From Candidatus Altarchaeum sp. (GTDB lineage Archaea; Altiarchaeota; Altiarchaeia; Altiarchaeales; Altiarchaeaceae), in NCBI GenBank assembly GCA_018260615.1, contig JAGWDQ010000109.1:1-29653 (forward strand): a stretch of DNA of 29,653 bases, in the 5' to 3' direction. Below, one piece after another: positions 7,704 to 26,577 of this stretch (position 1 is its first letter; each line of letters begins with the position of its first letter). Below the pieces are notes generated by a model. The model ran no database searches, was not told the DNA's origin, and worked only from the letters and a program-made list of their open reading frames with translations. A program made the position numbers and the translations under genes.

Positions 7704-7821
7704 AATCTCCGAACTATTTTCAAAAACGCAGTTTTCAAATCGCAGAGATTTGAAAATCTCCGAACGAAGTGAGGTGAAGTTTTTGAAAATACACGAACGA
7801 TAGTGAGCGTAAGTGAGGTGA
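7704..7821. repeat. Cluster of family B REP-like units
   Basis: aaatctccgaac, ttttcaaatcgcagagatttgaaaatctccgaacgaagtgaggtg and acgaacgatagtgagcgtaagtgaggtg. Confidence 0.8.
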
Positions 7822-20963: not shown

Positions 20964-21120
20964 TTTTAAAAACCTGAAGTTTTGAAAATCTCTGAACAAC
21001 ATTGAGGTGATTTTTCTCACACAGAGCCACAAAGGCACAGAGAATAAAAAAATTTAATTTATTTCTCCATTGATTGTTCTTGATTGTATTTAATTCATCA
21101 GTTCTTGTGTCTCTGTGTGA
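20964..21120. repeat. Family B unit followed by a family A inverted pair
   Basis: ttttaaaaacctgaagttttgaaaatctctgaacaacattgaggtg, then ctcacacagagccacaaaggcacagag (21016-21042) ... ttcttgtgtctctgtgtga (21102-21120). Confidence 0.75.
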
Positions 21121-21695: not shown

Positions 21696-21888
21696 GTTTC
21701 CATACTACATCACCTCGCTTACGCTTGGAGATTTTTAAATAAATTTAAAAATAGTGCGATTTAAACTTGTTTGAAATATACAAACGAAGTGAGAGTATTT
21801 TGTATTTGCCCCATGTTTTCATACTACCTCACCTCGCTAACGCTCGGAGATTTTCAAAATTTCATTTTAAAAATAGTGCGATTTAAAC
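21581..21888. repeat. Three copies of a TGTTTCCATACTAC...ATAGTGCGATTTAAAC unit
   Basis: 21581-21610 (30 bp, empty); 21695-21766 and 21814-21888 (each carrying a family B REP inside). Confidence 0.85.
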
Positions 21889-21895
21889 TGTTTTG

Positions 21896-23413
21896 TTAAA
21901 GCTTTAATTTATTTTTAATTTCTTCATGTCTGCTGTGAAGTGTTGAAATCGTAATTCCTACCAAATACAATAGTTCTTTCTTTGGAAATTCCTCCCCGAT
22001 CTGTTCACATGCCAAACTTATAATTGCTCCCGCAACCCCCGAAGGACCTCTACCTGCAGTAATTCCATATTTCTTTGCTTCATTAAGTATTTTCTGAGCT
22101 TCTTCTTCGGCGGTATTTGAAATCCCAATTTTTGAAGCATAGAGAGCAATATAATCTTCTACATTTGTTCTTGGTGGTTTCAGATTCATGGACTTAAGTA
22201 TATGTTTATAACTTCTGCCGATTTCTTTTTTTGATATTCCGCTTTTTTCTCCGATTTCTTCTAATGTTCTCGGTTCTCCCTTCTTTCTGGTCACATAACA
22301 TATTATTGCACCAATTATACTTTCTATACTTCTTCCTTTAACAAAGCCCTTATCTACCGCCTGTCTGTATAAGTGAGCACAGTCCTCCTTTATTGTTTCT
22401 CCGATGTCTAACAAACTGCACATTCTGTCAAGTTCCGGAAGAGCTATTGATAAATTTCTACCAACGCTGTCGCTCATTCTGCTCCTTGTTTGTAGTCGTC
22501 TCATCCTATACAGTTCAACTTTTCTTTCCACTTCAAATCCGCCACCTTTTGCATCTCTGTCGTAGCGGTCTATTTCCGTTGTTAAACCCTTGCTGACCTT
22601 TGCATCTTTTATTGCACCGCTTGCCCTTGATCTTTTTTCTTTTTGTCCGCTGTCAAATGAACGCCATTCCGCACCTGTATCTATCATCTCGGAGTCAATA
22701 ATCGTTCCGCAATTTGAGCACACAATCTCGCCTGTCTTAACATCAGGAAAAGCACTTTCATAAAATATTTGTATATTGTTGTTCGCTTTTTCGGTAAAGC
22801 CAACCGAAAAAATTTTTTCCTCTTCTAAATTCGGAGAATTTTTAAGTGTAAAAACACATTTTAAATAAATTAGAAGGATTGCTCTGTTTTCCTTTTTAAC
22901 AAGTATTTCGCTTCCTTCATTGCTTATTTCCGGCTCTTTCAGGTCCTTCAGCAAAGTCACTTTATCAATAATATTTTTATCTAAATTTTTCTTGGAATCT
23001 AAAATTTCCCATAACATTGTTTGCTTCTCTTTATCCTGTGAAAATTCTTCAAGTGTAAATAGATATTCGTCTTTATCATATATTTTTGTTTTGCTGTTTT
23101 CAAATCGCACTTCTCCCAGAGGATAAATAAATGCATCTCCTCCGCTTTGACAGCCGTATCTTTTATCTATCTTTATATCACTTTTTAAAGTTAAATTTCC
23201 AATTATCCCGTTTTTTCCCTTAATTTCAATCGTTCCATCCTCATAGACATATTTTGCCTCTTCTAAATTTGCGCTTAAATTTCCCCTCTTACTTCCCAAG
23301 TCGTTAAGCATACAGGTATTTTTTAAATACCTTTTTATTGCATTTTGCTGTGCTTTTTCCTTATCTATCTGGTCAAATACGAACAATATTCCTTTACATT
23401 CCGGACACCTCAT
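21896..23413 (-). CDS. tfb: Transcription initiation factor IIB with a ~210-aa insertion in the zinc ribbon
   Basis: CPEC...GEIVCSNCG, EWRSFD B-reader, GLTTEID, RNLSIALPEL, KGRSIE, PRTLEEI and GRGPSG cyclin repeats. Confidence 0.93.
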   Translation of the reverse strand: MRCPECKGILFVFDQIDKEKAQQNAIKRYLKNTCMLNDLGSKRGNLSANLEEAKYVYEDGTIEIKGKNGIIGNLTLKSDIKIDKRYGCQSGGDAFIYPLGEVRFENSKTKIYDKDEYLFTLEEFSQDKEKQTMLWEILDSKKNLDKNIIDKVTLLKDLKEPEISNEGSEILVKKENRAILLIYLKCVFTLKNSPNLEEEKIFSVGFTEKANNNIQIFYESAFPDVKTGEIVCSNCGTIIDSEMIDTGAEWRSFDSGQKEKRSRASGAIKDAKVSKGLTTEIDRYDRDAKGGGFEVERKVELYRMRRLQTRSRMSDSVGRNLSIALPELDRMCSLLDIGETIKEDCAHLYRQAVDKGFVKGRSIESIIGAIICYVTRKKGEPRTLEEIGEKSGISKKEIGRSYKHILKSMNLKPPRTNVEDYIALYASKIGISNTAEEEAQKILNEAKKYGITAGRGPSGVAGAIISLACEQIGEEFPKKELLYLVGITISTLHSRHEEIKNKLKL

Positions 23414-23476
23414 TTTCCTTTTAATCTTTTAAATTTCTTTATTTATTTTACTTTTTTGATTAATTGTATAAATTTT

Positions 23477-23528
23477 AAAATGAAATAATAAAATGAAATA
23501 ATAAAATGAAATAATAAAATGAAATAAT
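23477..23528. repeat. 13-bp tandem repeat x4 upstream of tfb
   Basis: aaaatgaaataat repeated perfectly four times. Confidence 0.9.
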
Positions 23529-23676
23529 AAAATAATTTTTTAAAATATTTTAATCTTTAAAAAATAAGTAATTTTTAAAATAAATAATAAAAATAAATAA
23601 TTTAAAAATGAAATATTAATGAAACAATAAATAAAATAAAAAACAACAATTAAAATTTAAATAAATTTAAACATAA

Positions 23677-25010
23677 GGTAGTGATAAAGATGTAATGTTC
23701 GTTTAAATTGTAAAATTATCTCGTTGTTGTCCGGAGATTTTCAAATATATATGTTCTATGGATACTAATTATTAACACTACCTTTGTAAAATGTTAAGAA
23801 CATTCAAATACAGGATATATCCAAACAAGAAACAGCAGGAACTATTAGAAAAACACTTCGGTTGTGTTAGATTTATTTACAACTTTGCTCTTGACAAGAA
23901 AATAAAAGCGTATGAAACATCAAAAACAACACTTACAAGATTTGATTTACAAGTTATCGTCAAAGACATGAAACAAGATAGCAAATATTATTGGTTAAAT
24001 GAAGTAAATTCACAATCATTACAAGCAGTATTAAAACATTTAGACGGTGCTTTCACAAAATTTTTCAGAGAAAAGAAATGTTTTCCAAAATTTAAATCAA
24101 AGAAAAATAATTTCCATTCATTTGAATGTCCACAGCATGTTAAAATAGAAAACAATAAACTCATAATTCCAAAGTTCCTTGAGGGCTTAAGAATAAGATT
24201 AAGCAGAATGTTCACCGGTAAAATCAAGACAACAACAATATCAAAAACACCAACAGGAAAATATTATGCTTCTGTTTTAGTGGAAACAGATGATGTTTTA
24301 CCTTTAAAACCAGAAATAAAAGAAGAAACAACCGTAGGAATTGATTTAGGAATTAAATCATTTGTCACAATAAGTGATGGAACTAAAATAGAGAGTTTAA
24401 AACCTCTCAAAAACTCATTAGACAAATTAAAGGTATTACAAAAAAGGTTAAGCAGAAAGGTTAAAGAAAGCAATAACAGGAAGAAAGCAAGATTAAAAGT
24501 TGCTAAAATTCATGAGAAAATAACAGAGCAAAGAAATGATTATATTAACAAATTAACATGCAGAATGGTACACGACAGCCAAGTGGATACAATCTGTGTG
24601 GAGAATTTAAATGTCCAAGGAATGGTATGTAACCACCATTTAGCACAGGCAATAAGTGATGCAAGCTGGAACGAGTTTAATCAGCAGTTAGAATACAAAT
24701 GCAATTGGTATGGAAAAAATTATGTCAAAATTGGAAGATTTGATGCAAGCAGCAAAATATGTTCTGTGTGCGGAAACATAAACAAAGAACTTACACTTGC
24801 AGACAGAGAATGGACTTGTACCAATTGTAAAACACATCACGACAGAGATACAAATGCAGCAATAAATATGAAGAAATTTGGGTTGCAGAAACAAAATTTA
24901 ATCAATTATTCAGGGCAGGGTATGCCCGTAGGGCTTGGGGAGTTGTTGTCAGTAGACAGAGCCATGAACCAAGAATGATAAGAGGTTTCATTACCTATTT
25001 ATCACTACCA
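23677..25010 (+). mobile_element. 1334-bp non-autonomous TIR element with 8-bp TSD carrying tnpB
   Basis: GGTAGTGATAAA (23677-23688) / TTTATCACTACC (24999-25010), extendable imperfectly to ~21 bp (..GTAATG); AAACATAA at 23669-23676 and 25011-25018. Confidence 0.85.
23791..24978 (+). CDS. tnpB: RNA-guided endonuclease TnpB
   Basis: N-terminal FKYRIYP...FGCVRFIYN, RuvC triad GIDLG (D185), VENL (E271), DRDTNAA (D353) and zinc finger CSVCG...CTNC. Confidence 0.96.
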   Translation: MLRTFKYRIYPNKKQQELLEKHFGCVRFIYNFALDKKIKAYETSKTTLTRFDLQVIVKDMKQDSKYYWLNEVNSQSLQAVLKHLDGAFTKFFREKKCFPKFKSKKNNFHSFECPQHVKIENNKLIIPKFLEGLRIRLSRMFTGKIKTTTISKTPTGKYYASVLVETDDVLPLKPEIKEETTVGIDLGIKSFVTISDGTKIESLKPLKNSLDKLKVLQKRLSRKVKESNNRKKARLKVAKIHEKITEQRNDYINKLTCRMVHDSQVDTICVENLNVQGMVCNHHLAQAISDASWNEFNQQLEYKCNWYGKNYVKIGRFDASSKICSVCGNINKELTLADREWTCTNCKTHHDRDTNAAINMKKFGLQKQNLINYSGQGMPVGLGELLSVDRAMNQE

Positions 25011-25030
25011 AACATAAATAATGGGAACTT
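24880..25030 (+). ncRNA. Putative omegaRNA (scaffold over the tnpB 3' end and right TIR; guide from the flank)
   Basis: GC-richer structured tail gggcagggtatgccc...gaaccaagaa and terminal hairpin tgataagaggt-ttcatt-acctattttatca. Boundaries are inferred from TnpB biology. Confidence 0.5.
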
Positions 25031-25476
25031 TTGAAGATATTTTTATAAAATACGAATTAATTGGCTTACTGCTCGGATGTTTTGCATCATCTTCCATATT
25101 GCCGATTCCATCGGAACCGTTAATAATCATTAGCACAAAATTTCAACCCGTAATTTATGTGTTTGTTTTTGCACTTATCGGCTCTGTAGGCGGTGCAATG
25201 CTAAACTATGCAATCGGAATCAAAGGAATTAAATGGCTCGTAAAGAGGGAGAGTGAAAAAGAAAAGAAATTAGAAATGTGGTTCAGTAAATACGGAATAT
25301 TTGTACTATTGGCAGTTCCATGGATTCCGTTCGTTGGAGACCTGTTTACAATTGTCGCAGGTTCTTTGAAAATGGATTTAAAGAAATTTATATTATGGAT
25401 TACGATTGGCAAGGCAATAAAAATTTCTGTTGTTATTTATGCCGCAATGGCGGGAATAAAATTTTTCGGAATGTGA
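25021..25476 (+). CDS. YqaA/DedA (SNARE-associated, VTT domain) membrane protein
   Basis: SILPIPSEP, GSVGGAMLNYAIG, WF.KYG...LL..PWIPFVGD and GKAIK motifs. Confidence 0.88.
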   Translation: MGTFEDIFIKYELIGLLLGCFASSSILPIPSEPLIIISTKFQPVIYVFVFALIGSVGGAMLNYAIGIKGIKWLVKRESEKEKKLEMWFSKYGIFVLLAVPWIPFVGDLFTIVAGSLKMDLKKFILWITIGKAIKISVVIYAAMAGIKFFGM

Positions 25477-25624
25477 TGCATTTGCCATTTGCATCTTTTT
25501 TCGTCCATCCTTTTTTGCTAATCGTGGCTAAAAAAGGTGGCTGTGATTCCAATTAGCAAGGCAATAAAAATTTCTGTTGTTATTTATGCTGCAATGACAG
25601 GGATGAAATTTTTCGGAATGTGAT
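25409..25624 (+). repeat. 69-bp diverged direct repeat of the yqaA 3' end flanking a hairpin
   Basis: 25409-25477 vs 25556-25624 with 5 mismatches; the spacer contains ccttttttgc-taatcgtg-gctaaaaaagg. Confidence 0.88.
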
Positions 25625-25626
25625 AA

Positions 25627-26577
25627 TTATTCCTTCCAGACAACAAATTTCAAAATTATTGCTGTTTTTTCTTTTCCTTTTGCTAATGTCTTAACCATTT
25701 CTTTATTTAAATCAACTGCTGCTTTATCCGCCATTATGGCAATAGTTCGGTCATCTGTAAATTTACTTTTCCTTACAACGATATCTTCTTCATTCGTTAA
25801 AATTAAATTTTCACTGCCTCTCGCATTGATTTCTTCTCTAAATTGAGCGCAACTTATAAAAATTTTTACGAATGAGTTTGCATGCTTTAATGTTTCTTTA
25901 AATTTCTCCGAAAAACCAGCAACCGACTTATCGGCATTAACTCCGATTATGCAGTCGCCTTTTTTTGTTAAATGGTCATCTTTTGTAACTTCAAAGGTCA
26001 TTTTATGTCCGGAAAGCACATTTTCATGCCCGTAAGCATGCAATTCTTCACAAATCCCCGCATAAAATTCGCCGAATAAATTTTCAATATCTTTCTTTAC
26101 TCTTTCATTAATTTCAACCATTACAATTCCTTCATTTGGCTGTCCGTAAAACAAAAGTGTGTTCGGCGGACAAAATTTAACGCATGGAATAACAAATAAA
26201 TCCTCCTCACCATCAACAAAAATTAACGAGTGTTTAAAATTTAAGGCATCCTTTACAATTTCAAAGGCATCTTCCGTAAGCATTCCCGCAGGATTCCACA
26301 CGGAAAATTCATTGCCTTTGAAATTTTCCAGATTTTTCTCACTCTCATCGTAGTCCTTTCTTAATGTCTTATTGTCATACACACATAAATGGACATCCCA
26401 TCCGTCGCCTAACATTGAATTGCTGACAACATCACCGACACAGATAATAAATTTATTCTTAAATTTACCTTCAAATTTCTCTTTAAATTTTCCCAGTTCC
26501 TCAATGTTTTTGAATAATTTTCCGTAAGGGGTCTTAAATTTCTCCCTTATGCTATCTGGCAAAATAAAGACATTCAT
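25627..26577 (-). CDS. Fusion of DUF359 (GTP-dependent dephospho-CoA kinase) and DUF371
   Basis: N-half: K.PYG, ICVGDVV, YDNKT.R, NPAGMLT, VDGEEDL, YGQPNEG. C-half: AYGHENV...H..TFEVTKD.HLT.KGDCIIGV.ADK, VVRKS.F.D.RT. Confidence 0.88.
   Translation of the reverse strand: MNVFILPDSIREKFKTPYGKLFKNIEELGKFKEKFEGKFKNKFIICVGDVVSNSMLGDGWDVHLCVYDNKTLRKDYDESEKNLENFKGNEFSVWNPAGMLTEDAFEIVKDALNFKHSLIFVDGEEDLFVIPCVKFCPPNTLLFYGQPNEGIVMVEINERVKKDIENLFGEFYAGICEELHAYGHENVLSGHKMTFEVTKDDHLTKKGDCIIGVNADKSVAGFSEKFKETLKHANSFVKIFISCAQFREEINARGSENLILTNEEDIVVRKSKFTDDRTIAIMADKAAVDLNKEMVKTLAKGKEKTAIILKFVVWKE

Follow-up and report, generated by a model that had tools for sequence, protein, structure and literature searches.

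A tnpB gene between IS1-type terminal inverted repeats in Candidatus Altarchaeum

How does a tnpB gene come to lie between perfect inverted repeats flanked by an 8-bp direct repeat, and what could have carried it there? The locus that raises this question belongs to a contig of Candidatus Altarchaeum (JAGWDQ010000109.1; the window below is the whole 29,653-bp stretch that was analysed). The original prediction read it as a prokaryotic Fanzor-like arrangement, in which TnpB had been domesticated by a cut-and-paste DDE family and mobilised in trans. The observation behind that reading is confirmed, and the reading itself is partly supported. The arrangement is probably best explained as a non-autonomous cargo element of the IS1 family, that is, a tnpB-omegaRNA cassette captured between the ends of IS1-type MITEs and then moved as a unit by a transposase acting in trans.

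The element and its IS1-type ends

The TIR-bounded element occupies positions 23677-25009, and an intact tnpB is its sole gene; annotation of genes and domains found no transposase gene inside the 1,333 bp, as foreseen. The layout is also the predicted one, apart from three values that were off by one: the length is 1,333 and not 1,334 bp, the tail is 31 and not 32 bp, and the TCAC motif ends at 25005 and not at 25006. Both ends are 21-bp TIRs, perfect over their first 12 bp and identical at 19 of 21 positions overall, and a perfect copy of AAACATAA abuts each of them, just as had been noted. The parts of this boundary are as follows.

23669-23676, no strand: left copy of the 8-bp TSD (AAACATAA), read from the sequence and present once at the empty site of the congener G001
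23677-23697, plus strand: left TIR of IS1-family type, 33 bits on the family-end matrix
24989-25009, minus strand: right TIR of IS1-family type, with TCAC inside it at 25002-25005; 31 bits on the family-end matrix
25010-25017, no strand: right copy of the TSD, where the putative guide region begins; 3 bp 5' of the VTT/DedA ATG (25021)

The matrix behind these scores was built from 30 other ends of the IS1-type family. For the left TIR, the likeness to MITE ends extends over ~30-38 bp, and the identical 21-mer occurs at MITE ends of G001.

Could the pattern be due to chance or to faulty assembly? Perfect 12-bp inverted repeats paired with 8-bp direct repeats number only 23 in the 2.2-Mb genome, and nearly all of them are recognisable repeat families. 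The same sequence is present in seven other records (six, plus GCA_002841105.1), by which misassembly is ruled out; these records probably represent one groundwater population, and they bear on the correctness of the assembly, not on spread. Two sequencing runs that contain the element are groundwater metagenomes from one study. A locus at which no gene had been called (L267) was taken up as a candidate empty or variant allele and rejected, as the identical element is present there. It is confirmed that the element is neither a chance pattern nor a misassembly.

The order TFIIB-VTT is kept, without the element, in three congeners (G001, G002 and G003). At the empty site of G001, AAACATAA stands just once, and ATA and the start of VTT come after it; because of this single copy, the 8-bp duplication is a true TSD, as the original prediction held.

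Copies with new 8-bp TSDs at other sites were to be sought, and none came to light. Searches with blastn and tblastn revealed no second insertion in the genome, and there were no further copies in 60 other genomes of the phylum searched through the ends, in 40 of these searched through the protein, in genome, metagenome and viral collections, or in viral contigs screened by TIR pattern. One viral match was rejected, as it falls within an unrelated coding sequence.

As for the surroundings, the host genome (G000) has 2.2 Mb, 33% GC and a completeness of 87%, and TFIIB and S3Ae genes neighbour the element. The TFIIB (window 21896-23413, minus strand) has 505 aa, of which ~220 at the N-terminus are additional and match no Pfam family. 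From TFIIB to the element there is a 13-bp tandem repeat (window 23470-23538), which is 26 bp longer in GCA_002841105.1 and differs in the congeners. On the other side, the 3' end of VTT/DedA is duplicated 147 bp downstream as an 80-bp direct repeat (25398-25477 and 25545-25624, 90%), possibly the scar of another insertion, and beyond it a GTP-dependent dephospho-CoA kinase-like domain (DUF359) is fused to DUF371 (25627-26577, minus strand).

Which transposase could have recognised such ends? They had been assigned to the IS1 or IS1595 type, with a transposase carrying the same TIRs yet to be sought, and one was found on contig C42 of the host genome. The IS1 half of the assignment stands: the C42 gene scores 192 bits on NF033558 (cut-off 100), it is a single 246-aa frame with a zinc finger and D/D/E motifs, and the 90% cluster to which it belongs carries the name IS1-family transposase, from Ca. 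Altiarchaeum. IS1595 was rejected as the partner, with PF12762 below threshold on the same gene and NCBIfam in favour of IS1. The right end of the C42 copy has the same TIR as the tnpB element, and its left end is lost; G003 holds a full 840-bp copy with both TIRs, 94% identical to that of C42. Transposases of the IS607 and Y1 (PF01797) types were not found in the 87%-complete G000. Around the C42 gene (L272-L275), an IS110-family gene lies 0.5 kb downstream in two assemblies and is missing in two; it is a polymorphic insertion in the population.

Across the genus, the four genomes hold 18, 37, 12 and 6 such ends; reversed controls gave 0-3, and no other genome in the phylum has more than 2. 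The majority are MITEs of 102-235 bp without tnpB, among which two TSDs are perfect over 8 bp and two match at 7/8; the pooled flanks describe a loose, AT-rich target, approximately TT/AAAWTTTW. The family is active in the genus. One of its members in G001 (L298, G001:C42:11903-14238) is a MITE-cargo-MITE composite of 2,336 bp whose outer TSD (8 bp) is perfect, so that the family is seen to carry passengers. Its two MITEs (129 and 130 bp) are in direct orientation and identical at 127/130 positions, they enclose ~2.1 kb of genes (ORFs of 339 and 173 aa), and their inner flanks have 7 bases in common, a layout that looks like the footprint expected of a composite or a cointegrate. IS1 forms cointegrates and circles, and it deletes adjacent DNA; in the light of this background and of the cointegrate-like composite, the cut-and-paste route of the original prediction is doubtful.

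Genome-wide, G000 has at least two further MITE families with 8-bp TSDs, with ends GTAACTACTCAC and GTAACTATTCAG, one of which includes a 1,607-bp cargo form (C96:13977-15583).

The tnpB gene and its guide RNA

Inside the element, the following features can be placed.

23712-23746, plus strand: copy of a REP-like dispersed host hairpin repeat, found also inside 151-bp MITEs of the IS1-end family
23745-23754, plus strand: putative archaeal TATA box of tnpB (TATATATG), ~40 nt 5' of the ATG
23771-23782, minus strand: decayed inner TIR-like motif, 10/12 against the left TIR, 8 bp 5' of the ATG
23791-24978, plus strand: tnpB, which encodes an RNA-guided nuclease of the IS605 group (395 aa) with a C4 zinc finger and an intact RuvC triad
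24902-25005, plus strand: predicted omegaRNA scaffold, overlapping the 3' end of tnpB; covariance model, 42.8 bits, E ~5e-8
24976-25004, plus strand: predicted replacement terminal hairpin, 11 bp with one bulge, its 3' arm being the right TIR; -9.0 kcal/mol

The gene is intact, as claimed: the catalytic residues D185, E271 and D353 are joined by the four zinc-finger cysteines (C324, C327, C343 and C346). The protein matches models of IS605 OrfB and of guided TnpB, above the cut-off for NF040570 and, with 418.8 bits, below that of 425 for NF038281. Its nearest relatives, at 60-64% identity, reside in ordinary IS605-group elements, and protein searches found none between 64% and 100%. The nearest clade (P0003, P0004, P0012 and P0017; tree support 0.80) has canonical right ends, a hairpin and then GTTCAC, and in three of these elements the left end follows TTAT. 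Another relative, P0016 (62%), adjoins a Y1 tnpA and has the RNA region most similar to that of the element. TIRs with a TSD beyond chance 4-mers were seen at no other of 156 tblastn loci, a set that includes about a dozen copies of the element's own locus. The Fanzor-like label does not extend to the protein: judged by its sequence, this TnpB is of ordinary IS605-group stock, with no kinship to Fanzor.

Other TnpB genes deserve a mention in their own right. Two homologues (60%) on phage-like contigs (L030:3001-4215 and L031:1859-3019) have an omegaRNA without the terminal hairpin and TTCA end, and these copies are possibly fixed or decaying. A more distant TnpB-like frame at G000:C84:43581-44777 has a longer N-terminus and no obvious ends. 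The same genome also harbours a second tnpB-only family, with at least six near-full-length copies (C24:3630-4844, C69:1316-2530, C119:22235-23455, C13:4157-5377, C70:18462-19679 and C42:5413-6678) of ~1.32 kb that encode 404-406 aa and are 87-96% identical to one another. It is unrelated to the element (~28% identity over a short stretch) and has different TIRs, starting GAGTGATTTCGC, with a short TSD at least at C119; in this family, too, the right TIR serves as the 3' arm of a terminal hairpin.

The left arm (114 bp) consists, past the TIR, of MITE-like sequence, the REP copy and an inverted TIR motif, and no IS605 left end is visible in it. For the inner motif, 0.011 chance occurrences are expected in the arm on a 12-bp matrix, and the likeness stops at 12 bp; the segment 23677-23782 may be an old MITE of 106 bp. 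A sigma-70 promoter scan, whose model is ill-suited to an archaeon, gave background level only. The dispersed hairpin repeat (core CTCG..CGGAGATTTT) is abundant, often clustered, and found at contig ends and inside MITEs; besides 23712-23746, the window has it at 26-51, 7748-7765, 20981-21014 and 21832-21858, and many other contigs have it as well.

At the other end of the element, 16 homologues yielded a covariance model to which the omegaRNA corresponds over the full length, with the conserved motifs GGAG (24939-24942) and GAA..GAA (24964-24975); the match ends at TCAC (25005), inside the right TIR. An Rfam search gave no match. The absence of a canonical right-end hairpin, part of the original prediction, is real; nothing is simply missing, since the model reads a full omegaRNA to TCAC and a TIR-based hairpin replaces the canonical one, in the exact place of the relatives' GC-rich terminal hairpin and at -9.0 kcal/mol against their -6.9 to -12.7. 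Equal stability is reached by 0.13% of 13-mers taken at random from the genome and by 1.4% of shuffles; none of the other 40 ends in the family has so strong a hairpin, the next reaching -4.0. Its 5' arm (24976-24986) resembles a TIR fragment (TIR positions 6-17), and it may be what is left of a second inner end, a local inverted duplication that selection has retained, or the two at once. As far as the folding goes, the right TIR now appears to form the last hairpin of the TnpB guide RNA.

Competing explanations

What order of events could have produced this structure? In the capture that we consider probable, the tnpB-omegaRNA cassette of an ordinary IS605-group element would have shed its own HUH ends and ended up enclosed by a pair of IS1-type ends; a composite flanked by MITEs, with inner ends that later decayed, is the most likely form. 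The remnants of such inner ends are short (11-12 bp, p ~0.01). An IS1 DDE transposase, presumably acting in trans on the outer TIRs, would then have inserted the unit between TFIIB and VTT, duplicating 8 bp, perhaps by a replicative or circle-based route rather than by cut-and-paste. What is shown is an IS1-type insertion of a unit holding tnpB, by its family of TIRs, its TSD and the empty site of G001. With TSD and TIRs perfect and the IS605 ends erased, the IS1-type event was therefore the last move, and movement as a unit is read from one site because only one copy is known. The reverse order, in which an IS605-group element entered a resident MITE, the source of the TSD, and had both of its own ends deleted afterwards, so that tnpB never moved with IS1 ends, is unlikely. 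In its favour, tnpB-less MITEs of 102-235 bp with the same ends are common and the left arm is MITE-like; moreover, the GAGGTTTCA stretch 5' of the right TIR and the TCAC within the TIR resemble IS605 right ends. Yet tnpB has no internal IS605 ends, as the original prediction had maintained: no left-end hairpin, TTAT junction or canonical right-end hairpin is left. The insertion is recent, with TIRs and TSD as yet perfect, and two precise deletions would have had to follow it; a Y1 transposase was not found in the 87%-complete genome, nor any MITE that matches the left and right arms together. That a single capture took place is well supported, and the element, known from one insertion, is real; "domesticated", which implies a lineage, overstates the case for one insertion without a relative above 64% identity.

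Another question is where the guide of this TnpB would start. For ISDra2 it is known that a pseudoknot is made by the final bases of the scaffold and that cleavage depends on ~12 bases of the guide (PMC10097598). If the transcript of the captured cassette reads through the right TIR into the flanking DNA, the guide would be taken there. This opens a further step, an extension of capture and not its exclusion, which we put forward tentatively: a working partnership at an early stage of a change of vehicle, in which the IS1 TIR would supply the last stem (stem 4) and the 3' strand of the pseudoknot to an IS605-group TnpB, the scaffold would end at the TIR tip or one base past it, the guide would start in the TSD, and the nuclease would cut the element-free allele, as in TIR-borne Fanzor1, giving RNA-guided maintenance of an IS1-family element whose target motif is not fixed. 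The replacement hairpin argues for it by its position, by its size and energy, similar to those of the relatives, and by a strength far above that at 40 other family ends, and the second tnpB family offers an unrelated instance of such an arm. By eye, and given that the hairpin forms, GGGAGU (24938-24943) can pair at 5/6 positions with the TIR tip in the pseudoknot register of ISDra2 (PMC10097598). Guides from 25010-25012 agree with the reconstructed empty allele over their whole length; on the filled allele, behind the left flank, the match is 6-8 nt only, fewer than the 12 nt needed. Several points weigh on the other side. TTAT precedes the insertions of the nearest relatives, and the residues that presumably read the TAM are for the most part conserved, but the empty site gives ATTT, TTTA or TTAA; TTAA stands at the needed place in 6/37 ends, and a fixed TAM would be absent from most new insertions because IS1 targets are only loosely TT/AAAWTTTW. 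The covariance model stops at TCAC and not at the TIR tip, the whole RNA is not unusually stable (z -0.9), and a single copy does not allow covariation to be assessed. The G in GGGGAG was considered as a compensatory change and rejected, as it is found in canonical IS605 relatives too (L256). A guide taken from the TIR itself (start 24992) was likewise rejected, since it matches the element's own end only and leaves no stem 4. Very improbable, lastly, is the canonical register, with the scaffold ending at TCAC (25005) and the guide made of TIR tip and TSD. With a TTTAT TAM it would target a multiplying, unrelated 233-bp MITE family, in a conflict between elements, or else it would be silent, as activity would cut its own chromosome. 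The covariance model does place the scaffold end there, and TTTAT with the 12-nt seed occurs in seven near-identical copies of that MITE, 12 nt being enough for cleavage by ISDra2 (PMC10097598). The chance of such a match, 0.7-2.9% for one register, rises to ~5-15% for the six registers tried, and 8/12 seed bases come from the TSD, host sequence that the empty site also has, and hence not from the MITE; the match is probably due to chance. All seven MITE sites are intact, without escape mutations, which argues against this register being active with a TTTAT TAM. In addition, it would break the lower half of the hairpin and weaken the pseudoknot, and its guide (from 25006) misses the empty allele. 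The 233-bp MITE itself, with a TIR starting CAAAAGTTTCCC, is apparently recent (contigs C18, C22, C44, C64, C90, C115 and C137 of G000).

Comparison with known systems

The layout is not unprecedented in prokaryotes. Altae-Tran et al. 2023 described six branches, DDE-1 to DDE-6, of TnpBs associated with DDE transposases, and also solo TnpBs that have the same ends (PMC10691335). The element resembles these in its TIRs around tnpB, the lack of a transposase in cis and a presumed mobilisation in trans, and the distance from the end of tnpB to the end of the element, below 250 bp in that set, is 31 bp here (PMC10691335). In the main texts, the partners named are IS630, ISL2 and IS1031, and IS1 is not among them (PMC10691335, PMC13565253). 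A literature search, with most subscription journals outside its reach, found no paper describing TnpB with IS1 or IS1595 ends. What appears new here is the IS1 partner and the RNA end built from a TIR, not a TnpB with DDE ends (PMC10691335). DDE-1 to DDE-6 are branches of the protein tree, four of them regularly mobile, whereas the present case consists of one insertion, and its nearest relatives still belong to the IS605 group, which argues for a separate capture. Such pairs are rare according to a 2026 review, which lists ISL2, IS630 and IS1031 as partners of TnpB; a likely reason for their rarity in prokaryotes is that a TSD disturbs the geometry of TAM and guide, and that the right end is part of the guide RNA (PMC13565253).

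With IS200/IS605 elements (the IS605 and IS1341 groups; ISDra2, IS608), the element shares the type of TnpB and an omegaRNA scaffold that overlaps the end of the gene. Unlike them, it has no left-end hairpin, a replaced right-end hairpin and no Y1 TnpA of its own, and none was found in the 87%-complete G000; they have neither TIR nor TSD (PMC13565253) and insert 3' of a fixed 4-5 nt motif, and it has TIRs, an 8-bp TSD and no TTAT at the empty-site junction. With the IS1 family, its MITEs and MITE-flanked composites, it has in common the TIRs of the local single-ORF IS1, the 8-bp TSD, the AT-rich target and the carriage of cargo (compare the G001 composite, L298). It differs from an autonomous IS1 in having no transposase gene of its own, and from other IS1 composites in a cargo that is an RNA-guided nuclease, whose RNA overlaps and is predicted to base-pair with the TIR, and in inner ends that survive as remnants. 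The likeness to Fanzor1, a nuclease of the TnpB family in an element with TIRs and TSD, with a guide from beyond the right end (PMC3627910, PMC13565253), is an analogy of layout and not kinship: the host is an archaeon, the TnpB is an ordinary one of the IS605 group, and no fixed TSD motif could be used as a TAM.

Why does one insertion matter? For a single switch from HUH ends to TIRs and TSD, the clade of the donor, the transposase and MITEs of the acceptor and the empty site are all known, and the three guide registers give different predictions. A functional chimera, if true, would be a prokaryotic replay of the entry of Fanzor into TIR transposons, with the donor still recognisable at 60-64%; if the nuclease is inactive or mis-aimed, it would be a passenger gene in an IS1-MITE composite, of modest interest. 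In its workings the element is like a DDE-associated solo TnpB, and it fits a non-autonomous IS1 derivative; it is neither a member of IS200/IS605 nor a Fanzor.
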